Of a stretch of 64,000 bases of DNA, positions 1 to 49,356 are shown one piece after another. A program made the position numbers and the translations under genes. The stretch's first letter is position 1; each line of letters starts with the position of its first letter. The stretch is taken from the NCBI GenBank assembly GCA_002269645.1, contig NIVC01000427.1:17590-81589 (forward strand). The letters are read 5' to 3'. The notes below the pieces were generated by a model. It made no database searches, was not told where the DNA came from, and saw nothing but the letters and a program-made list of their open reading frames with translations. The stretch comes from Macrostomum lignano (taxonomy: Eukaryota).

Positions 1-818
1 TCAGCCCCCAGCTTCTCGGCTGTGGGCTGTCTCTGTTTCGCTTCCATCCTGTTTTCCTCTGTCATGTGAGCAAGTCACATGACAGCTCTTGCGTTCTTTG
101 AGTCTTAAAGTGCAGTAAACATGTTTACTGCACTCGTTGGCCCTGTTTACCGGGTGAGTCACATGCTTTCGGACCCCTCCCTTTTCTAAGGAGAGGAGTG
201 ACTCAATTGCTAAAAATAGCAACTGAGTCACAGCCATGTGTACTCTGCCGGGGACCCTCAAGTGACGTCAGTTCTAAAAATAGAACAAGTCACGAGGTCT
301 TCCGCGCGCTTGTACCCTGCCTGAGACTCTCGAGTGACGTCAGTTCTAAAATAGAACAAGTCACGAGGTCTGGAGCGTGGGAATTTCCCGGCTATAAATA
401 GGAGCCCTCTCCCCCTTGTTTCCGTCAAGGAGTCTTCCTTCTGTTCAACCTCGAGTTCTACGTCAGCGTCTAACTGAGTGCCCGACTGCATACATTGAGT
501 CTGTTCGTATTGGTCTGACTGAGACCCGACCAAAGCGCCCCAAGCCTACGAGAGACTAACTCAGCCCTCCCTCTGCCATCCAAGCCCGGCAGGTACTGCT
601 GACGAGACGCCTTATACGTTGAGCTGCAAATCTGCACGTCGTGCTGTGTTCGTTGACTTCATTATTTCGTTCCGACGGGAAGCTCACCTCACCGAAGGCC
701 GAGACCTGAAAGAACTGGTGGCAGCACTACCTACGCTACTAAAGTTAAGAAGGCTTCTAAGTGAGAGGACGGAGCCCAAGTCACTGCGCTGTACAGCAGG
801 ACAACCACAGGTACAACA
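1..818 (+). mobile_element. Long terminal repeat (5' end outside window) of an LTR retrotransposon, probably Ty3/Gypsy-like; internal region truncated
   Basis: Ends ...TACAACA at 818, followed after 1 nt by an 18-20 nt tRNA-Leu PBS. TATAAATA at 393-400 is preceded by a dense enhancer-motif region. No gag/pol or second LTR follows. Confidence 0.8.
59..400 (+). promoter_or_regulatory. LTR U3 enhancer/promoter motif cluster
   Basis: M-box inverted pair (59-85); perfect 24-bp palindrome with two GTAAACA Fox sites (110-133); AP-1 at 155-161, 199-205 and 224-230; MEF2 CTAAAAATAG at 210-219 and 274-283; CRE TGACGTCA at 263-270 and 335-342; kB GGGAATTTCC at 379-388; TATA at 393-400. Confidence 0.7.
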
Positions 819-819
819 T

Positions 820-839
820 TGGTGGCAGCGGTGGGATTC
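820..839 (+). promoter_or_regulatory. Primer-binding site complementary to the tRNA-Leu 3' end
   Basis: TGGTGGCAGCGGTGGGATTC is the reverse complement of GAAUCCCACCGCUGCCACCA, the conserved 3' end of eukaryotic tRNA-Leu(AAG/UAG) including CCA. Confidence 0.85.
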
Positions 840-882
840 AAAGACCTACCAGGCCACCCCGAGAAAACCCCAAACTATTTCA

Positions 883-2180: not shown

Positions 2181-2849
2181 ACATTGAGGTGAGGGTGAAA
2201 ATAATCTGTAACAATTAAATTCTTGCCTTGCCAAAGAAACATCTTGCAGTGGTTTACCGACAATCTAATTGATAAACATTCCACAGTACTCAAAAATGTA
2301 CAATTTAATAAAATAATTCATTTTTCAAAGACCAATCACACAATCGATTGCATTATTGCTACATGCCATCATAATGCATCAGCAGTAATGTGAAAATAAA
2401 TGTTTTTTATTATAAATTGAATGATATATATTTGTATTCTTTAAAGTAAACAGTTTGTTGGTTGCTGCAGCACAGAGCCACAGAAGTTTCATTTTTCTGT
2501 AGTACAGTACTTGAAGAATAGCATATATCACAGTTAAAAATACTTATGAACTATATTTCTTAAGAAAGTTTTGTATTTACAGGGCTCCCTCTCTTTCAGT
2601 AACAGATGACCGTTACCCGTTTATCAAGAAGGAAAATAGTTATTAAAACCACAAATAAACATAGGCTATTAAGAGCAATTAAAGAGGCTTGTCAACAAAT
2701 TAAGATAATGAACAGTAAATGAAGAGCTTGATTCTAACGTCAACGAATTGAAAAATTAAACACAATGTACAGAAGAGCGGATTTTTTTAATGGTCAAACT
2801 GATTGTAAAAACTGCACATTACAATGTTATATTGTTACCACAGATACTA

Positions 2850-3290
2850 GAATAACTAGATGGGCCACTTAGCACATTTGCGTGTAAGCTACTTTCAGTT
2901 CAGTAGTAAGCTAAACAGAAGCATTTAAATGTATTTTTAAAGCCAAGGCTCATTTATTGGCTCTTACCCCCCCCCCCCCTAGCTAAAACCCCCAACCGCG
3001 CCTTTCCAATCTACCCCCAGCCCCGCCCCAATTTTTATTGCCTTTCTCGGAATTCCAGCCTAAAGCTGCCATGTACATTTCAGCGGACTGGCTAATGTAC
3101 ATTACTGCTGAACCAATTAGCAAGCTGTTTTCGCCTGCAAGCTTTTGTTTGAGATTCTAAACTTATCAAAGTCATTTTAGCTGCCTCGATTTTTTATAAA
3201 AAAGCTTATGTATTCTTCTTTGCTACTGAACTGAAAGTAGAAAGCTGTTTTACTAAGTATATATGCCTGAGTGGCCCATTTAGTCATTTC
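2850..3290. mobile_element. Degenerate MITE-like element
   Basis: Inverted terminal segments TAGATGGGCCACT / AGTGGCCCATTTAG and CTACTTTCAGTTCAGTAG / CTACTGAACTGAAAGTAG; no coding capacity; TSD not resolved. Confidence 0.55.
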
Positions 3291-4190: not shown

Positions 4191-4541
4191 TTAGGATCGA
4201 AGCGCGGCTAGCCGATCCCGCATAGCGTCCATGTCCTCCTCCTCTTCTGGCTCGGCGCCTCCGGTGGCTCCGGCCGCGGCCGCATCGGCGGCGGCGTCTG
4301 GCAGACGATCCTGGACAGCGTCTGGCGCGGTGCCCATCACGCCGTTAGTCAAGTCAAATAGGACCTTATCAACCTCCTTGTCGGCGTCAGCTTCCAATTG
4401 ATCGTCGTCGCCAAGCACGTCGCTCATAGCGTCCTCCATCATTTCGTCCATGATGCCCATTTTGGTCATCTCGCGGCTCATCTCCATCATAGTCTGCTGG
4501 ATCTCCGGCACCTTGACCAGCTTCTGCATGGCATGCATCAC
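4191..4541 (-). CDS. CHMP3: CHMP3/VPS24 (ESCRT-III), exon 2
   Basis: VMHAMQKLVKVPEIQQTMMEMSREMTKMGIMDEMMED...MRDRLAALRS matches the CHMP3 C-terminal half, including the terminal MIM-like helix; acceptor AACAG| at 4542; phase 0. Confidence 0.93.
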   Translation of the reverse strand: MMHAMQKLVKVPEIQQTMMEMSREMTKMGIMDEMMEDAMSDVLGDDDQLEADADKEVDKVLFDLTNGVMGTAPDAVQDRLPDAAADAAAAGATGGAEPEEEEDMDAMRDRLAALRS

Positions 4542-5133
4542 CTGTTGATTGGCGATAGTAAAAGCGATTTATAACTAAATGACATAAAAAAGAGCACTAG
4601 AGTTGGCGATTGATCTGCGTGTAGATGGAGCCCAGGCATCTGGAACCAGAGATTAGAGTGCCTGCTGCTCTTTGCCAAACTGCCTATTTTTATACCACTG
4701 TAAGGCTTTCTAGCGAGACCCTTCAAATATGTGCATCTGTTTATCAGGTTAAAAAATGTACACAAAAATTGGCCAATATGTAATAAAACGTGTAAAAAAT
4801 GTACTCGATTAGCCACAGAATCGAAGATACATTTTAACTTCCAGTTGGTGAGTCCATGGCTTGTGTTGCTTGCTCCTTCACTCTGTGCATGGTTAGTCTA
4901 TGGCCAAAACTCCCAACCTTGGGATACACGACATGATTGATGTAAGATTGTTGTCTTACATGATGAAAGGACTGTCACATGAACACTGTGTGGTTAAGGC
5001 TCAAATCTCTACAGGTGACAAAATTGTTTAGTCATTAGTTAATCAAGTCAATGATTTATACGTTTTGTTTCATTGAGCCGCTCGTACATATTAGCCCATT
5101 AGCTTCAATGACTCGCCCCATCTACTGTATGTA

Positions 5134-6383
5134 TTGGGCTGTTAGGAAAGTTCTGTCCGTTTTGACTAAAATATGTTGGAGCGAGTTTTTATAGGAATGC
5201 AGCAGTGTTACTCAGTAAAATAATTGCCATCGCAATCGATGACCCTCTGCCAACGAGAGGGCAGACTTTGGATGCCAGCTCTGTAGAAATCCTTGGGCTG
5301 TGATTCAAAAAAGTTAGTAATGCAGTCCTTGACCCCTTTGTCATCTTCAAACGTTTTCTCTTTCAGATGATGGTGCAGCGCTCGAAAAAGATGGTAGTCT
5401 GTAGGGGCCAGATCGGGGCTGTACGGCGGGTGGGGCAGCACTTCCCAGCCCAGATCCAGCAGCTTTTGTCGGGTCAAATTGGCGGTGTGCGGCCGAGCGT
5501 TGTCATGAAGGAAGCGAACATGCTGACGCCCTGGACGCTGTGTGCGGAGGCAGTCGGCCACATTCTGCAGCTGGTTACAGTAGAGCTCGGCGGTGATGCT
5601 GGTGTTGGGCGGCAGCAGCTCGAAGTATACAACTCCTTCACTGTCCACCAACAGCAGAGCATCACCTTCTTAGGGTGCAGTGGGGCCTTTGGCTCTGGCT
5701 GTGGCGGCTTGCCGGCATCGACCCACTGGCGCTTGCGGTGTATATTAACGTACATCACCCACTTCTCATCGCCAGTGAGTATTGAGGCCAGCCAGTCTGT
5801 TGTTCTCTTGTAGGAGAGCAGTGAGGTGCAAATGTCTGCTCGGCTTTGACGGTCCCTGTCAGTCAGGTCATGGGGGGTCCACTGTCCAAGCTTGCTTTTC
5901 TTGCCCATGGCAGCCAGGTGTTCAGCGACTTGCACATGGGAGCACCCGAGAGTGGCTGCCAGCTCTCGTGTAGTCTGGTGCGGATTGGCCTCCACAAGTG
6001 TCCGCAGCAGCTCAGTGTCTATCTCAGATGGGCGTCCAGGGCGAGGTTCGTCAGCAAGGCTGTAGTCGCCGCTGCAAAAGCGATCAAACCAACGACGGGC
6101 TGTGCGGTCAGAGACAGCATCCTGGCCAAATGCACTGCACAGTCGTCGAGTCGATTCGGCTGCTGTAATACCTGCTAGAAAATCATATAGCATGCACTGC
6201 CTTAGAGCGATGCTGTTTAATTCGAAATTTCTGGCCATAATTGGGCGCTGAAAAGCAAATGACTTGGTTAGAATGACCACAACTCTGGCTGTATATGCAT
6301 ACACAAGTATTGGATCCAACACAGCTTCATGATCCTCTGCATAGAAAAATAAAAAAACGGACAGAACTTTCCTAACAACCCAA
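5134..6383 (-). mobile_element. Full-length mariner (D,D34D) transposon, 1250 bp, in the CHMP3 intron
   Basis: ~30-bp TIRs TTGGG(C/T)TGTTAGGAAAGTTCTGTCCGTTTT with 1 mismatch; TA flanks at 5132-5133 and 6384-6385. Confidence 0.95.
5208..6238 (-). pseudogene. Mariner transposase, ~343 aa, with a single 1-bp frameshift near 5646
   Basis: HTH region, WTPHDL, GDEKW, HDNARPH-x34-D and YSPDLAPTD motifs. TGGTGGACAG needs one more G to read WWDSEGVV. Confidence 0.9.
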
Positions 6384-6491
6384 TAAATCAAAAAACTGCA
6401 CTCAGCCTACTCATGTCTAAAAACATAAGGTGCGATGAAGACAGTCAGGCACTCAAATGTTCATCGATAGTGCTTATCACGCATCACACAC

Positions 6492-6815
6492 CTCGGTACT
6501 CTTTTGCATAGCTCCGGCCATCCGGGTGACAGCCAGCTGGTGGTCCATCTCCATCATCACGGAGTTCATCTGGGCCTTGGCGGCGTACAATCGGCCAACA
6601 GCTTTGCGCGTCTGCAGCACCTCCTTGGCAACCACCATGGCGGCTGATTTATTGCCAGATTTGCAATACTTTTTAATTTCCGCCTCGGCAGTTTTCTGCT
6701 TGCGTTGTATAGCATTAATGTCTCGGTCGAGTCTGTAGCCCTCTTTACGCAGCTTAGACTTCATCTCGCGAACCTGCTCCTTCGGGTCTTTGGGTTTCTC
6801 GCCGAAGAGGCCCAT
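6492..6815 (-). CDS. CHMP3: CHMP3/VPS24 (ESCRT-III), exon 1
   Basis: MGLFGEKPKDPKEQV...LYAAKAQMNSVMMEMDHQLAVTRMAGAMQKSTE; donor GAG|GT at 6492/6491. Confidence 0.93.
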
Positions 6816-7009
6816 GCTTTGCTTCGCTTTGTAGGGGAATGTGGTTTACAGAACTTGGCTAATAGCTTTCGCGGTTAAGCACTGGGACGAGTTTGACATG
6901 AATTTAGCATTAAAAAGTGCAGGAATTTAGATCTAGACTAGAATGCACATGCAGTGTTTAGCACCTATTTAGCTTCAGAATTGCGGAAGAATTAAGGACT
7001 GGGGAAAAC

Positions 7010-8359: not shown

Positions 8360-8797
8360 TCACTGCCACTGAGCCCCGGTGCCGAAGCGCTGTCGGCATT
8401 GTTTAAGAATCTCGCTATAGCCGGCGCACAGGCTAATATCCTGCTGGTTAACGCTGCAGTTCATTAGCTGCTCCATCTCGTATTGGCAGGGCTGCTGCTG
8501 CTGCTGCTGCTGGGCAGCACCCGGGTCAGCGGCAGATTCGACAGCTCCGCCGCTGCCGCCGAAGCTGCCAGTGATGGCGTGTCCGATGGTGTGCCCGATG
8601 GCCACTCCGCCGGCTGTGGATGCCATGTTCGACAGGAAGCCGCCGCCGCCCGAGGGGGCCGATGCAGCCGGGGCGGGCTGTGCCGGCGGCCTAGCGGCTG
8701 GCACATTGTTGCTGGGCCGCGGAGCGGCCGGTGGCGGGGCGGCCGGCCTGCGCATGAAGCCGCCGCCACCGCCTCCTCCTCCAGATCTGCGACCCAT
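8360..8797 (-). CDS. CHCHD2: CHCHD2/CHCHD10-family mitochondrial intermembrane-space protein, single coding exon
   Basis: Gly/Arg/Pro-rich N-terminus, hallmark MASTAGGVAIGHTIGHAITG segment, twin CX9C motif (CQYEMEQLMNC, CAGYSEILKQC). Confidence 0.92.
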   Translation of the reverse strand: MGRRSGGGGGGGGFMRRPAAPPPAAPRPSNNVPAARPPAQPAPAASAPSGGGGFLSNMASTAGGVAIGHTIGHAITGSFGGSGGAVESAADPGAAQQQQQQQPCQYEMEQLMNCSVNQQDISLCAGYSEILKQCRQRFGTGAQWQ

Positions 8798-8974
8798 TGT
8801 TAATAATTAATAGGTGAGAGACTTGCGAGCATGCAGCGAATGAGATTGCGCAATGACTCGGTCTCGGATTAAAATGGCTATTTAATTATTCTAGGACCCT
8901 GGAACCTTAAAATCTTCTATGGAACTTGAAGGCATGACAAAAGTAAGGGACTATTCAGAGTCTATTCTTTATAT

Positions 8975-13281: not shown

Positions 13282-13431
13282 CATGGCGCGAGAGCTGTTC
13301 ACCGCTGAGCTGTTCTGCTCCTTTAAGCAAGGGTAGATAATAGACCTTAGCTTGTATTCGCTGAACCCATTGGACACATTACACAGGCGCAAACATCTTA
13401 AGTCATACATAATAAGCAATTACAAACTTAC

Positions 13432-13566
13432 AATTCAGGACTGAGAAATGTGAAAAACTCCGCTAAAAACAGGTAGAGAATGAAAGCAACGCTGACAATG
13501 GAGACCACGGCGCCAGCTTTTGTTGGCTGCGTCAGGTCCTTGGGAACTTTGCGGTAGATGTCGAAC
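13432..13566 (-). CDS. ERGIC1: ERGIC1 exon 2
   Basis: FDIYRKVPKDLTQPTKAGAVVSIVSVAFILYLFLAEFFTFLSPE (TM1); AACAG| acceptor, |GTAAGT donor. Confidence 0.93.
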
Positions 13567-14273
13567 CTGTTTCGAGAGAAAACATCATAAATAAAATATG
13601 AATTTGAAAATAAGCTTTGGTTGTCGGAGTTAAAGCCAATGATAAGTATTAGTGGTAAAAGGTATGTTTTTACATTTTTGATAATAACTTTTTGTACATA
13701 ATTTGAGAAATAACATGCCTAATATCAAAAAAACATTTATGGCTACTAGGTTGACTGGATGAATAATTACAAAAGCTACTAATTTCTGTCTGTCTAGACC
13801 ATACATATAAATCTTCAACTGAATGAAATGAAACTGGCACTGAAATGAAACCAGCATAGTCTTAACATTTTTGCCATTTTGATTAACACAATCTTGTTTA
13901 ATGTTAAGCAACAATCTTTGATTGCTAAATAATGCAAAATTACCACAAAAAACTTATTAAACAGGTAAACTACACAAATAGAGCCTTGCTCTAATAATAA
14001 ATTAGAAAGAAAAGAAATATATAGTTGAAAGTCTTGAAATAAATTGTTTGGTTTAATATAATGGAGTTTAAAGATTTGCCATGACCTTCTAATAGTAATT
14101 ATAATGGACAAAGACAAACTATTTGAACTCAACTTGACTTTTAAACATTTACTATTCAATTTGAGCTTTGCTTGAAAAAACAAGGTTTGTTAGGATTTTA
14201 AAAAATGTGGTATAAATGGTATATAAAATAAACTTTTAAAAACCTTTTCTATCATATAAACAATGATTGCTTA

Positions 14274-25463: not shown

Positions 25464-26135
25464 TCACACCTGCGACATGTGACCCGGCATTGGTGGCAGC
25501 GGCGGCAGCGGCGGCAGAGGCGGGTGTCCCGGAGCCACATTGAATTTATAATACGGCCTCGGATCTGCCGAGTGCATCGCGCGCGGCTGACAGCAAAACA
25601 GGCGGTAGAAAAACGAGCGCCAAGTCTGCAGAGTCTTGCCAGACCAGACCCACACACCGCTGGTGATGCCAACGGCCAGCTGCATGAACTGGCGCAGCAT
25701 GAACACGCCGTACTCTGGCTCCGGAGCCGGCGCCTGGTTCTGGCCGAGGCAGCGGCAGGTTTTGCCTCTCAGCCAGGCCTCGCGCAGCTGGGCTTCGTAG
25801 AAATGGCAGGCGATCACCACGCAGGCTGGCAGGGTGTACAGGATGGAGAAGATCCCGATGCGGATCATCAGCTTCTCCAGCTTGTAGGTCTTGGCGCAGG
25901 CCTGCTGCTTGATCACAGAACGGATGCGGAATAGCGCCACAAAGCCAGTGAGCAGGAAGGCGCTGCCCAGTAACAGGTAGGTCACCATGGGAGCCAGCAC
26001 GAACACCTGCAGAGCTGTGAGGCTGGTGTTCCCGACGGAGCAGATACCGGATATTGGATCGCCGTCAACCAATGAGAAGGTGAGAGCCAGGATGAACTGC
26101 ACGATGGGCAGGAGCCAGGCAATGCCGTGGAACAC
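25464..26135 (-). CDS. fzd5/8: Frizzled-5/8, coding exon 4 (TM4-7, KTxxxW, PDZ-binding tail)
   Basis: GDPISGICSVG, KLEKLMIRIGIFSILY, GITSGVWVWSGKTLQTW; C-terminal -MSQV (cf. FZD8 LSQV, FZD5 LSHV). Confidence 0.93.
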   Translation of the reverse strand: MFHGIAWLLPIVQFILALTFSLVDGDPISGICSVGNTSLTALQVFVLAPMVTYLLLGSAFLLTGFVALFRIRSVIKQQACAKTYKLEKLMIRIGIFSILYTLPACVVIACHFYEAQLREAWLRGKTCRCLGQNQAPAPEPEYGVFMLRQFMQLAVGITSGVWVWSGKTLQTWRSFFYRLFCCQPRAMHSADPRPYYKFNVAPGHPPLPPLPPLPPMPGHMSQV

Positions 26136-26204
26136 CTGTTTGAAGGAGTTTTGTTTTTGTTTTCTTTATTGTAATTACCATTAGTTACATGGACCTAGTG
26201 AGCC

Positions 26205-26502
26205 CAGCAACACACTCAAATACACAAAAACACCCTCAGATACACAACAACACACTCAGATACACAGCAGCACACTCAGATACACAGCAGCACACTCAGA
26301 TACACAGCAACAGACTCAGATACACAGCAACACACTCAGATGCACCGCAGCACACTCAGATACACAGCAACACACTCAGATACACAACAGCACACTAATA
26401 TACACAGAAGCAGACTCAGATACACCGCAGCACACTCAGATACACAGCAACAGACTCAGATACACAGCAGCACACTCAGATACACAGAAGCACACTCAGA
26501 TA
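26205..26502. repeat. 20-bp minisatellite filling frizzled intron 3
   Basis: (CACACTCAGATACACAGCAG) about 15 copies. Confidence 0.95.
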
Positions 26503-26515
26503 AGATGCGACAAAC

Positions 26516-27159
26516 CTCGCTGTATTTGGCGATGGCCTCGCTGCCCCACTTGAGCCCGGCCGCCAGGAACCAGGCCACGCACAGCATGACCCACCACACG
26601 CAGCTGGCCATGCCGAACAAGTAGGTCAGCAGGAACACCACGGTGCACAGCCAGGGCCCGGTGGAGCCGTAGCGCAACAGTCGACCATCGCAAGCGATGG
26701 CATCCCGCCCGACAGCCAGTCGCAGGATGTAGCCGGCTGACACCATCATGTAGCAGGCGGACATCATCACGATGGGCCGCTCTGGATAGCTGAACCGTCT
26801 GGTGTCCAGCAGGAAGGTGAGCACAGTCAGGGTTGAACTGGCCGCGCACAGAATCGACCAGATGCCCATCCAGACGGTGGCCAGCTGCGACCTGTCGGCG
26901 AAGAAGGCGCCCTCGCAGGGCAGAGCGCAGTTGTCAACTCCACCAGTGTGCACCCGATTATAGTAGCCCTGATCCGCCTCGGTGAGCGTCACCAACGGCT
27001 TGCGGCACTTGCAGTCGCATTCAATGCCGAACGTTGACGACGGCGAATCCGGATCAGCCGGCGGCAGAGTCGGATCGGAGGACAGCGGCTCCGGAGTCTT
27101 GCTGCTGCTCTGCTGCGTGTTGTTGACGTCCATGCACAGGATGTCCGGATCGCCGAATA
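26516..27159 (-). CDS. fzd5/8: Frizzled-5/8, coding exon 3 (linker, TM1-3)
   Basis: (V)FGDPDILCMD...FSYPERPIVMMSACY...WWVMLCVAWFLAAGLKWGSEAIAKYSE; CGCAG| acceptor at 27160; phase 1 start, phase 0 end. Confidence 0.93.
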
Positions 27160-30100
27160 CTGCGGGTTTCATAGATTCATTTATTGATTTCTCGTCCAAG
27201 AATAGTTTTAGAATCTTTTACTAGCTGGAAAGCTCGTATCTTCAAAAAGTGTATAGATAAGACAATTCGTAGACAGAAACACTCTATTTTCTTAGAAATG
27301 AGCTGGAAACCCGATAGGAATATCGATTTGTGGCATCGCTGGTGCATTTAGTTTGCTCTACTAGAGAACTTATGGCGTTGAATGGGATTTAGCCATAGAC
27401 AAATTCGACGGAGAGAGATCCGCGCTAGAAAAATCCAATTCCTACACGAAACCTGGGACTCTGTAACTTTTTGACACGAATTTGAATTTGAACCCTCTGT
27501 ACTACTAACAACGGGTTAGTAGACTAGTACGGTACTTGAGTCTTATAGAAAAATAAGTTACATGGCTAAAAAATTTTACACTTAAATTAATTTTATCCAT
27601 CAAGATTGACAGATACGCCAGCACGTGACCTGCATTTAGCGGCAGTAACAGCAGCAACTCGACCCCCGATTTCCAGATCCGAAACCATTAGGGGCCGCTC
27701 GCGAACTGAATTTGAGACGACTAAAAAAGAGCGGGACGAGCAGCAGAAGCCCCGATTGATGGAGAGACAGGTCCAGACTCCATGAAACAAAATTGGAGAA
27801 TCAGAGAAAAGATTGCCGAACGAGATATGAATCCAGTTATATGATGAAGCTAAGCAAGATTTGAGATAGAATTACCCAGCTTTTTGAGATCTCTTTGTGC
27901 TCTAGCTGGGAGCCGTCGGCAGGTAGCTGGGTCCCTCAAGCCTGCGCAGGATTCAATCGATAGACTTGCAAAAAAAACCAGAAGAAAGGTATAGAAAAAG
28001 CGCCGAAGAGGCAGACAAGCAAGAGGAAGAGACCCCGAGCCGCGGGGGGAGGGGGGTTGCACAAGGTAAGCCGATCTCATTCCGTGTTCACCCTGCAGGG
28101 GCAGTTTGGGATTTCAAGGGAAGCTGGAGGAGCAGCAGGGGGATGAGGGAAGGATTCGCGCTAATGAGCCGGGCAGCCGTGAGTCCGCTGAGATAGGGAT
28201 CGGGCACGGAGCATTTCTAGAAACAAGAAAGAGAAGGTGGATGGAACAGAGAGAGAGGGTGGAGAGAGGAAGGTCGATAAGCAGTAAGAAGAAGAAGAAG
28301 AGGTTCGACAAAATTGCTGCAAAAAATCGATCGAAAAAATCGTCACATCACCGTCTCTCTCACCTGAGCTCGCCCCGGACCAGCCTCCGCCCGCCTCATC
28401 ATCTTCAGTCTCCCCACATTCCCGAAGCCATAGCCCCTAGAGCCGTCGCCCTGGCAACCCCGCGACAAGGCCAAGGGATGAGTGATTCTACTCAATTGAG
28501 AAAGGTGGGAAATTCTTTCCCCAAATTTTGCCCACTCAAGCTCTACGGGAGAAAATTGCGTGCGTAGAGAAACTTCTTTCTCTCTTCATCTCCCCCTCTC
28601 TTACTTCCTCTCAAGTCTAAAATTCTTCCCGCCCCTTCCTTCGGCTCAGCTTCTTAGTCATCATCGGGCATCATCTTCGGCTTCTCATATTTTTAAACCG
28701 CCCCTTCCCCTCCCCGCTTCAACCTGGAAACATTTTGAGTGCAGAGCTTTTAATGCAGCGCCAGGGCAGAAGAGGTTCAGCAGCAGGAGCAGCAGAAGCA
28801 GCAGACGAAGAAGCGGAAAGACGCCGTGGGCTACCGCTTTTTTCTCCTCAGTCTCAAGCATACTCCACGCCGGATGGTCGGCATGGCTACCCTACCCTGC
28901 CTTCCTGCTATGCCCCTTTCCTAATTCTAGTTTCTCTTCAATCTAGTTAGTGCCAATTTCTAATAGTAGAATGTAGATAACGATTTTAGTATAATGGACT
29001 AGCAATCACCGCCCCCCCCCGTTGGGGGAGGCAACAAAGAAAGGAATGAAAATGTTTGAATAAACTATACAAGTAGCATTTGACCTTGTACAGTCACTAT
29101 TGTTAGTATCCTAAAGAAAATCATGCTTTAAGCAAAAAATCATCACCATTGAAGTCCAGCTATCTAGCCTAAGATATCAGCATCCCCTGTGAGCATTGGC
29201 ATCAAAGCTTCCCTTTAAGCCGTGGCTTAACCCTAACTCTCCCTTCGATCTACCTTTGCTCGGTCTACCAACAACTTTCAATTGATCCTTTGGCATTTCA
29301 ACCCCCCATGAGCCACAGAATTTCAACGACCCCCTCCCCGTGAGCCCGGACATCTCGTGCTGTTTAAATATTATTATTTACCACTAAAATTTTATGCCAG
29401 GTGCAAATATAGAATCCTCAAGGTGTTCAGCTGATCCACTTTGACCCAGTCTGGGTCCGCCACTGCTTAATACTCACTGCCTTCATACTCGAAACTGCCT
29501 CGTCACTTTTACCAAGCTTCGATGATTTATGAAAGTGTGATTTATCAGCTCCAACAGACTGACCTGTCGGTCAGTTCCGGCTTGTCCTGACAGTCGCTGA
29601 CATTCAATTCGTCAAAACTAATTTCCTACCTGCCTACCGAAAGTCGGGCTTGAAAGCGGACGAGAGGATGACGGGGATTAGACAGGCTCGATGGGATGTT
29701 TCCCTCCCCAAAGCTGCCCCGCCTGCCCGTCAGCCACCTCATCAAAGCTGGCAGAGTGACAAACTCATTTTTGTCACTTTCCCCTCCGCCCTCGCTTCCC
29801 CTTCTCATCCCTCCTGGCGCCCGCGCTGCTCCCACCTTCCCCGAGATCCCACGCGTCCTCGCCCTCCCTCATCCCGGCCTGCCTGTCTCGCGTGTTTAGG
29901 GATGATGAGGAACAAACAGAGAGGCTGCTCTGAGGCTAGGCTTAGAGGGAATTTGGGATATTTGCGAATTGAAAAAATACACAGAGAGAGAGCGCACAAC
30001 AATTCCTCTCTCCGCCCTCTGTTAAAAAGCCAAAGCTTTTCTCGCCTTCATCTAAGCTCGCCCCTTCGCCATGCGACTCGCTTCCTCCCACCCTCTCCTT

Positions 30101-48056: not shown

Positions 48057-49356
48057 CGAGGGGAAGTAAAAAAGTAATGATAATTTTGCTGTCACGCCTA
48101 AAATATCAGAGTTATTGAACTGCAACTGGTTTCATTTGAAAAAACATCTTTTGATCTTTATTTGACAGAGTTTTAGTTCTTCTAAAGTGATTGATGCCTG
48201 CATGGTGACACTCTAATCACAGTATACCCTTTCAGCAATGGAAAATTCAAAAATTGAAGCTCGTACTAATGTGACATTTCTTGTATAGCTTGGTTGGAAG
48301 CCAGCCGAAATCATTGACGCTTTGAAGAAGGTCTATGGGGACACTGCTCCACCAGATCCAACCATTTATTGCTGGATTCAGGCTTTTAAGGAAGGCCGAG
48401 AGTCCACGGAAGACGCCCAGCGGTCGGGGAGGCCCACAACATCGCGCACAGGGGAAAATGTGGCAGCTGTGCAGCCAGTGATTGAGCTGGATCGGCGCGT
48501 GACCATAGACAATATTGCTGACAAAGTTGGCATTGCTCATGGCAGTGCTCACTTCATTGTGACGGACTGTCTTGGTCTGAGCAAGCTGAGTGCCCGCTGG
48601 GTCCCGAGGCTGTTGCGGCCTGAACACTGGGTTCAGCACACTGAGTGTGCCATCAACCTGCTGAACCGCTTGGACGCTGGTTCAGAAAACAGTTACCAGC
48701 GCTTAGTGACCGAGGATGAAACATGGATATTTCAGTACAATCCCGAGTCCAAGGTCCAATCCAAAGAGTGGCTGCCACGAGGTTCAGCAGGCCCCAAGAA
48801 GTTCCATGCGGAACAGTCTGCAGCGAAGGTCTTGGCGACGATTCTCTGGGATGTTGAGGGAGTGGTGATGGTGGACTTCTTGGAAAGCCAGAAGACCATC
48901 AATGCCACCTATTATACGTCGCTTCTGCGAAAGCTCCGAACCGAACTGGCCAAAAAGCAACCTGGCAAGCTGCACCTTGGGATTCTCTTTCACCACGACA
49001 ATGCACCAGCCCACACTTCTCGGCTCTGCCATGAAGCCCTGCAAGATTTCCGCTGGGAAATCCTCCAACATCCTCCATATTGCCCTGGTTTGGCTCCTTC
49101 GGACTTTTTTTGCTTCCCAAGCTGAAGGAAGCAATCAAAAGGAGACCAAAATGAGGACAAAGAGGCTGCCAAAAAGGCTACTGTACAGTGGCTTGTTGCA
49201 CAGCCTCCTGAGTTCTATGTGAACGGCCTGGAGAGATGGCGACACTGCATGGAGAAGCGTCTGACCCTGGAGGGGGACTATGTAGAAAAGTAGATTTCCA
49301 TTTGAAGTGTGACACTCGTGACAACAAAATTATTATTACTTTTTGACTTCCCCTCG
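48057..49356 (+). mobile_element. Full-length mariner (irritans/Hsmar2-like), 1300 bp
   Basis: 40-bp TIRs CGAGGGGAAGT(A/C)AAAAAGTAAT(G/A)ATAATTTTG(C/T)TGTCACG (37/40 match); TA flanks. Confidence 0.93.
48238..49293 (+). pseudogene. Defective mariner transposase
   Basis: WVPRLL, EDETW and HDNAPAH-x34-D motifs. Premature TAG at 48286-48288, frameshift near 49110, YSPDL decayed to YCPGL; ends EGDYVEK*. Confidence 0.9.

Follow-up and report, generated by a model that had tools for sequence, protein, structure and literature searches.

The window analysed here, a 64,000-nucleotide stretch of the Macrostomum lignano genome (G000:C427:17590-81589), opens inside an LTR whose U3 region was predicted to hold an ordered stack of palindromic stress- and wound-response motifs. 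Are these motifs kept by selection, and if so, for which function and for whose benefit? We compared the LTR with the other copies of its family, with more distant relatives, with host upstream regions and with described systems.

The solo LTR and its family

The region had been read as an LTR, and this was borne out by its length of 1044 bp, its TG...CA ends and a 4-bp target site duplication (TSD). It is a solo LTR of a Ty3/Gypsy retrotransposon on the plus strand, occupying window positions 1-882 and starting 162 bp 5' of the window (G000:C427:17428). The downstream TSD, GAAG, lies at 883-886, and the insertion is embedded in a 17-19-bp satellite that reaches to about 1140. A truncated 5' LTR with a primer-binding site (PBS) after position 818 was rejected, because the TSD follows 882 and because 3' and solo LTRs of the family carry the same PBS unit.

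The U5 of the window copy contains a short PBS relic at 716-725 and a 64-bp extension unit at 819-882, both on the plus strand; the latter begins with a full PBS copy (820-839) and ends with CA. Extra units consisting of a primer site, a short leader and a CA end were also seen in 3' and solo LTRs, and they numbered 0, 1 and 2 in 18, 11 and 1 of 30 TSD-defined copies. Such units or an older PBS relic were noted in L016/L017, L025, L027 and L113 and in the sister families (L046-L082). The working PBS has a 1-2-nt insertion in several full elements, while the captured PBS copies are perfect. These features, seen in the sister families too, suggest that priming at a downstream PBS lengthens the U5.

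A DNA search for family members gave 658 first-look candidates, and the 40 that were scored were 96-100% identical. At least 187 LTR starts are matched by one 16-mer, and 30 of the 62 sampled copies showed a matching 4-bp TSD, as in solo LTRs. Full elements measure about 9.4 kb from LTR to LTR. Their LTR pairs are 99.6-100% identical in eight of nine elements, the ninth pair having been aligned over 155 bp only. Pfam domains follow the order zf-CCHC, RVT_1, RT_RNaseH, Integrase_H2C2 and rve; the protease was recognized by eye from its DSG motif and has no Pfam match. The paired LTRs with TG...CA ends and a short TSD, the gag-RT-RNase H-integrase order, a PBS after the 5' LTR (presumably of the tRNA-Leu type) and a polypurine tract before the 3' LTR are those of Ty3/Gypsy elements. 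In the RT-RNase H region, identity to proteins recorded under Macrostomum lignano is 99%, and the best non-host matches reach about 50% identity or less. In conclusion, the LTR belongs to a young Ty3/Gypsy family of M. lignano. No env was detected in the one full element read, and in L031:5224-9306 the integrase frame runs on for about 800 low-complexity residues without a Pfam match. No tRNA gene was found in the 64-kb window. The family was not matched to any Mlig-id, and a gene-name search of Table S2 of the study on M. lignano LTRs gave no match (PMC12801592).

The LTR is antisense to a host CCCH zinc-finger gene. One exon of this gene spans 1284-1682 on the minus strand, a CHY-domain exon lies beyond the LTR and outside the window, and the LTR probably sits antisense in the intron following the CCCH exon. 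RNA-like contigs cover the exon at 1284-1682 and then continue in sequence outside the compared stretch. Their start at 1682 is preceded by 14 letters without a match, possibly from a trans-spliced leader of an operon; a run of minus-strand genes occupies 1284-1682, 4194-6845, 8363-8806 and 13431-13718 (CCCH zinc finger, Snf7, CHCH and ERGIC). Transposase frames of the Mariner/Tc1 type lie at 5211-6406 (minus strand, between two Snf7 exons) and 48289-49122 (plus strand). A very high-copy, MITE-like short repeat with opposite-strand joints in contigs was seen at about 2837-3280, and exons for a Frizzled/Smoothened membrane region at 25467-27217 (minus strand), about 25 kb from the LTR.

Regulatory motifs of the U3 and their conservation

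When the U3 of the window copy was re-scanned, every motif named in the original prediction was located, all on the plus strand. The factor names, DIV2 excepted, are our assignments from vertebrate and insect consensus patterns. An M-box/E-box pair occupies 59-85, with sites at 61-69 and 75-83 in 11-bp inverted arms (59-69 and 75-85). It is followed by a Fox palindrome with sites at 115-121 and 122-128, whose 14-bp core (115-128) is DIV2; the palindrome stood as described, its length did not (26 bp at 109-134, not 24 bp). A third Fox site (144-150) and a third AP-1 site overlapping an E-box (155-165) fill the segment 144-165 and had not been noticed before. The AP-1/MEF2/AP-1 unit at 198-231 has its AP-1 sites at 199-205 and 224-230 and its MEF2 site at 210-219. 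Next comes a duplicated unit, with copy 1 at 239-300 (CRE 263-270, MEF2 274-283, N-box-like 289-296) and copy 2 at 311-371 (CRE 335-342, MEF2 346-354, N-box-like 360-367). The duplication of a CRE and MEF2 cassette had been correctly recognized, but its length of 44 bp had been underestimated: the unit is about 72 bp long, and 239-300 and 311-371 match over 62 bp at 90% identity. A kappaB-type site (379-389, 10-mer 379-388) directly precedes the TATA box (393-399). The U3 thus holds five bZIP sites (3 AP-1, 2 CRE). An 8-mer of CSL/Su(H) type at 376-383 overlaps the kappaB site in the sub-lineage of the window only.

Some details are peculiar to the window copy. The MEF2 site of the second cassette is 9 bp long, one A short, and private to this copy. 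Nor does any other of the 52 copies have the 4 nt that link the left AP-1 site to MEF2 in the AP-1/MEF2/AP-1 unit; in the commonest form (36 of 52) this linker measures 5 nt.

Region 59-391 contains 13 sites of 6 classes, compared with a mean of 0.21 and a maximum of 3 in 2000 dinucleotide shuffles, and the density of the same motifs in window 901-64000 is 0.30 sites per kb. Two inverted repeats with arms of at least 11 bp, as present in the U3, appeared in 0 of 500 shuffles. As the motifs were listed from the window sequence itself, the shuffle test is post hoc; this choice does not bear on the comparisons with the sister family and between copies.

Copies for the between-copy test were gathered by the first 16 bases of the LTR rather than by motifs, and 12 of 74 were removed as duplicate insertions. 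The resulting set of 62 still includes two copies chosen by U3 likeness. For the column-wise tests these two were removed, two others were added and the 10 of 62 copies without a TATA anchor were left out, which gave 52 copies; the TATA-anchor filter removes those copies that are most damaged or recombinant.

Most motifs were widely kept in the set of 62: the AP-1/MEF2/AP-1 unit in 46 copies, the exact 14-mer of the Fox palindrome core in 45, the right M-box in 48 (the perfect M-box pair in 21) and the E-box of 155-165 in 55. The CRE-MEF2 cassette was kept in 54 copies, with one, two and three cassettes in 27, 25 and 2 of them. A canonical heat-shock element (HSE) was found in the U3 of 0 of the 62 copies and nowhere in the whole window LTR, and an SRF CArG box in 1 of 62. 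L106, L145, L156 and L164 share the LTR start and have lost most or all motifs; they are truncated, recombinant or of another U3 type.

We then separated shared polymorphism, with alleles in at least two insertions, from changes private to one copy. Shared polymorphism was found in 13 of 101 motif columns versus 116 of 233 other columns (52 copies; Fisher p 4e-11), and 0 of 333 circular shifts gave a value as low. Singleton columns were no different (32 of 101 motif columns versus 85 of 233 others, p 0.45). Counted on a tree, non-singleton steps per column were 0.40 in motifs versus 1.49 elsewhere (MK-like p 1e-5). By both measures the motifs were better conserved than the spacers among replicating lineages, contrary to the refuting outcome named in the original prediction. 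Non-singleton steps were absent from the right M-box, from the two Fox and the two AP-1 sites and from all three MEF2 sites; the two CREs had 3 and 2 such steps, against 16 in the left M-box and 19 in the kappaB site. The left M-box and the kappaB centre vary as much as the spacers. In the kappaB site, 6 of 10 columns are polymorphic across the 52 copies, with a variable centre and a conserved end frame. A strict kappaB site on either strand was present in 23 of these 52 young copies, and the others are mostly one mismatch off. Recombination between subfamilies and the alignment of a variable cassette number add noise to this test. Because replicated variants avoid the cores and post-insertion mutations do not, the data point to selection on the element's own promoter, with the motif cores kept by purifying selection during element replication.

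Relatives of the family and the origin of the stack

The closest sister family has an RT identity of 76-77%, and its LTR cannot be aligned with that of the window except for the PBS unit. With the motif list fixed beforehand, 6-8 sites were found in its U3, a number that none of 500 shuffles reached. They comprise four AP-1 sites, a single E-box, one or two Fox sites and usually one MEF2 site. Two CArG boxes each were found in the 77% and 74% sister families. A sister U3 at L046:1815-2688 (G000:C19), which combines four AP-1 sites and two CArG boxes with E-boxes and Fox sites, is a candidate for a second immediate-early-type LTR. Across 14 other LTR types the highest count was 3 sites, in a single copy (7 of 500 shuffles), and the remainder had 0-2, a comparison with little power for the ten control LTRs of only about 200-280 bp. 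In the sister set, 8 of 30 elements had no usable LTR pair, and the ends of another were set by analogy with its family; in the control set, 4 of 20 elements had no resolved LTR. The between-copy test in the sister family was weak (3 of 80 versus 46 of 391 columns, p 0.04), and the contrast was not significant in two other families. One MEF2 10-mer is common to all four closest families. On these motif counts across families, the full stack is special to two related lineages, and MEF2 is the clade-wide core.

Older relatives were retrieved through the CRE-MEF2 pattern with a longer spacer (58 matches). Where alignable, their LTRs are about 70% identical to the window LTR. Most of them carry one bZIP-MEF2-(AP-1 or E-box) unit, with an M-box and an E-box upstream and a forkhead block whose left half is imperfect. 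Since the older copies carry a single bZIP-MEF2 unit, the stack appears to have grown by tandem duplication, and the three MEF2-centred modules of the window are likely duplicates of one ancestral unit. A strict kappaB site directly before the TATA box was seen in 5 of the 11 older relatives with a TATA box (chance about 0.001 per copy). We had taken the kappaB site for a recent accident, as it was present on the plus strand in 12 of 62 copies; this was revised after the both-strand and older-copy counts. The kappaB frame would thus be old although its centre turns over, and the perfect symmetry of the motifs would be recent and mostly derived.

The original prediction held that symmetric pairing of several motif classes is hard to explain by chance. 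The non-chance occurrence of the motifs stood; the symmetry itself is largely accounted for by dimer sites (DIV2, MEF2, bZIP) and tandem duplication. MEF2, AP-1, CRE and E-box motifs are likewise nearly palindromic and bound by dimers. Symmetry is imperfect in older copies, and palindrome correction may have helped it to arise. DIV2 is bound by FOXO1 as a cooperative homodimer, with reporter activity 5.4-fold above that of single sites, and also by FOXO3, FOXM1 and FOXI1 (PMC8034652). Window 115-128 is the same 14-mer and has no shared variation among 52 copies. In older copies of the LTR the left half is imperfect, and binding by a flatworm FoxO is a prediction.

Predicted function of the U3

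We consider it somewhat better than an even chance that the U3 is an enhancer-promoter mimicking host immediate-early (jun/fos-type) promoters, and propose it as a candidate for that role. Its core would be the bZIP-MEF2-(AP-1 or E-box) unit, multiplied in the young lineage, with a kappaB-type site adjoining the TATA box and the M-box and forkhead block upstream. MEF2 together with CREB/AP-1 would respond to MAPK and calcium signalling, for instance after wounding; FoxO dimers and MiT/TFE factors would add nutrient-stress input, and Rel would add immune input. Full-length copies would then be transcribed in stimulated cells. A wound or starvation function of the U3 is a plausible prediction, and its beneficiary is likely the element rather than the host.

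The predicted response to MAPK and calcium signals follows from the likeness of the composite to known promoters and injury motifs. The SARE of Arc combines CREB, MEF2 and SRF sites (PMC2803749), the c-jun promoter has a MEF2 site and AP-1 autoregulation (PMC6514070), and CRE and AP-1 are leading injury-opened motifs in Hydra (PMC8049744). Like Arc SARE and the c-jun promoter, the U3 places CRE or AP-1 close to MEF2, and CArG boxes occur in two sister families. Unlike them, it lies in a retrotransposon LTR, holds the composite three times, and adds a forkhead-dimer site, an M-box and a kappaB-type site. Clustered and conserved CRE/AP-1 and MEF2 sites, as in immediate-early promoters, are thus present, but the SRF CArG box is practically lacking from the family (1/62).

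The vocabulary of the LTR matched that of host jun/fos upstream regions. The genome gave 43 bZIP matches. Two host genes are Jun-like and one tested gene is Fos/ATF-like; the remaining jun/fos-type labels were read from the bZIP sequence. MEF2 and AP-1/CRE sites within 300 bp of each other occurred upstream of 3 of 6 jun/fos-type genes, a small sample of upstream regions without mapped start sites. Among the other bZIP genes 1 of 8 had such a cluster, and 126 kb of background sequence held one. The other 3 of the 6 jun/fos-type genes have no such cluster. One fos-like gene has MEF2, AP-1, kappaB-like and TATA motifs in the same order as the LTR, in the second jun gene two exact MEF2 sites lie close to a TATA-like box, and an XBP1-like gene has one exact MEF2 site as well. 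Rel-homology matches numbered 30, 24 of them above the Pfam cut-off. One Rel-homology frame has the motif RFRYxSE, and its nearest Atlas clusters are of Rel homology; its Ser stands where NF-kappaB has the DNA-contacting Cys. Rel-homology tandem arrays were noted at G000:C109:280817-388359, C475:52891-90672 and C1505:189111-215205 (L041-L045), on redundant contigs.

CRE-MEF2 composites were also found in the host genome. The pattern CRE-N2-7-MEF2, searched in the orientation opposite to that of the LTR, gave 64 matches, of which 60 had a full CRE and lay outside the collected LTRs; the reversed control gave 0, and altering the CRE core left 2 matches versus 60. The first 30 loci fell into 15 clusters, none of them LTR-like and often short tandem arrays. 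Composites at L196-L225 and L279-L304 (for example G000:C861:351285-352282, C2111:39421-40803 and C1229:60776-61052) often form 30-90-bp tandem arrays in introns or between genes. Unrelated genes lie near the clusters, encoding a kinase/RGS protein, an HDAC, a phosphatase, a P-type ATPase, Gemin7 and PAF67, and no wound-gene pattern was found near the 15 clusters (Pfam scan of 148 of 159 frames). A splice-acceptor reading, with a branch-like TGAC before a T-rich AG, was disfavoured because altering the CRE core leaves 2 of 60 matches; it is also weakened by about 5 clusters without clear LTR likeness in the other orientation. One cluster in that orientation has a 66-bp match to a sister LTR nearby, and a shared repeat origin is possible for some arrays. 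The loci are either a class of host enhancers or a diverged minisatellite family, and the counts suggest that CRE-MEF2 is a putative host composite element.

Motif-stacked, stress-tuned LTRs as such are already known. HIV-1 kappaB sites, HTLV-1 CRE repeats, the wound elements of tobacco Tnt1/Tto1 and the EBV Zp promoter (MEF2 and CRE) are related cases. Retroviral and ERV LTRs carry signal-responsive AP-1, CREB and NF-kappaB sites (PMC10968565), and like the window U3 they are modular stacks of sites for inducible factors that change by duplication; MEF2 has no match in the main text of that source, and the window family is an invertebrate Gypsy without env in one element. The heat-induced HSE LTRs of the same host, M. 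lignano, are Ty3/Gypsy LTRs that gained host stress-pathway sites upstream of the TATA box, and plant ONSEN is described alongside them (PMC12801592). In M. lignano, LTRs have been shown to acquire working HSEs, and regeneration has been named as a possible germline route (PMC12801592). The window family differs in having no HSE (0/62) and in using bZIP, MEF2, Fox, E-box and kappaB motifs, and its induction is a prediction. LTR retrotransposons are also upregulated in sea cucumber and newt regeneration (PMC8718600), where the Gypsy-regeneration link is one of expression; here a candidate cis-code was derived from sequence. In the literature searched, with subscription journals mostly outside it, neither the window U3 nor any bZIP-MEF2 module of flatworm LTRs was found described.

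The strongest alternative is that the selected motifs form a constitutive cell-type enhancer, acting through MEF2 in muscle or neurons, or by way of E-box factors and forkhead dimers in the germline and in dividing neoblasts. We consider this alternative serious but unlikely. All conservation results fit it equally; MEF2 is the one motif common to the four closest families, and in two of these it is joined by CArG boxes, a muscle-type pairing. Multiple bZIP sites and a TATA-adjacent kappaB site are typical of inducible promoters, and the five bZIP sites and kappaB-type site of the window U3 speak against a constitutive enhancer, as does the MEF2 and AP-1/CRE cluster it shares with host jun/fos upstream regions. 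FOXM1 also dimerises on DIV2 (PMC8034652), which would point to proliferation. RNA-like contigs from four studies contain family sequence, with unrecorded conditions and possible read-through. In the host contig record, no contig holding family sequence is annotated as RNA. Contigs X1 and X3 are RNA-like, covering the exon and not part of the intron, and hold family sequence. They give no start, strand or level, and a neighbouring repeat is covered more deeply, so neither LTR-driven transcription nor a TSS can be concluded from them.

The original prediction also proposed that the LTR could spread ready-made regeneration-responsive enhancers to host genes, and this found no support. In its favour are the at least 187 LTR starts, the solo-type TSDs in 30/62 copies and the short distance, about 0.9-1.6 kb, between the window LTR and the 5' end of the host exon. 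However, the insertion, the only one checked for fixation, is absent from both other copies of the locus, one seen whole as an empty satellite and the other over about 1.2 kb including the matching position; thus the LTR is present in one of three locus copies, in a zinc-finger intron. Private mutations are as frequent in motifs as in spacers, giving no sign of post-insertion selection, LTR pairs are nearly identical, and the host CRE-MEF2 loci have no LTR similarity. Co-option by the host is therefore improbable, and the window solo copy is a recent passenger.

The least probable reading, that the palindromes persist because replication of the element uses them as RNA or DNA hairpins, or arose as template-switching by-products, with the motif look secondary, draws on the stable folding of region 50-240 (z -6.8), the lower variability of the outer arms (0.75 versus 1.49 steps per column) and the rise of symmetry in the young lineage (L117 gained symmetric MEF2 linkers in another way, as fits palindrome correction), but it is opposed by motif cores with 0 shared changes beside outer arms with several, by a commonest M-box pair variant that disrupts the stem, by older copies that retain the cores without symmetry, and by CRE-MEF2 cassettes and sister-family sites that are not hairpins.

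A wider version of the immediate-early reading is more tentative, and we hold it as possible rather than expected. A Gypsy lineage may have evolved a condensed host wound and immediate-early code (bZIP-MEF2, a FoxO dimer site, kappaB at the TATA box) that would fire in injured or starved tissue, so that insertions could reach stem cells and the regenerated germline; CRE-MEF2 would be a genome-wide host module, and the LTR a ready-made flatworm wound reporter. Regeneration-linked retrotransposon activation has been reported in several animals, and the accounts consulted give no cis-mechanism. In the window family, selection marks the important sites base by base, in a regenerating animal that is tractable to transgenesis. 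A reporter system for M. lignano LTRs exists (PMC12801592), and with the U3 one could test directly whether the wound response is exploited by an element. The U3 is also a candidate reporter of injury or activity, 350 bp long, and it hints at a CRE-MEF2 composite in host use. If the U3 proves constitutive, it would still be a compact cell-type enhancer.
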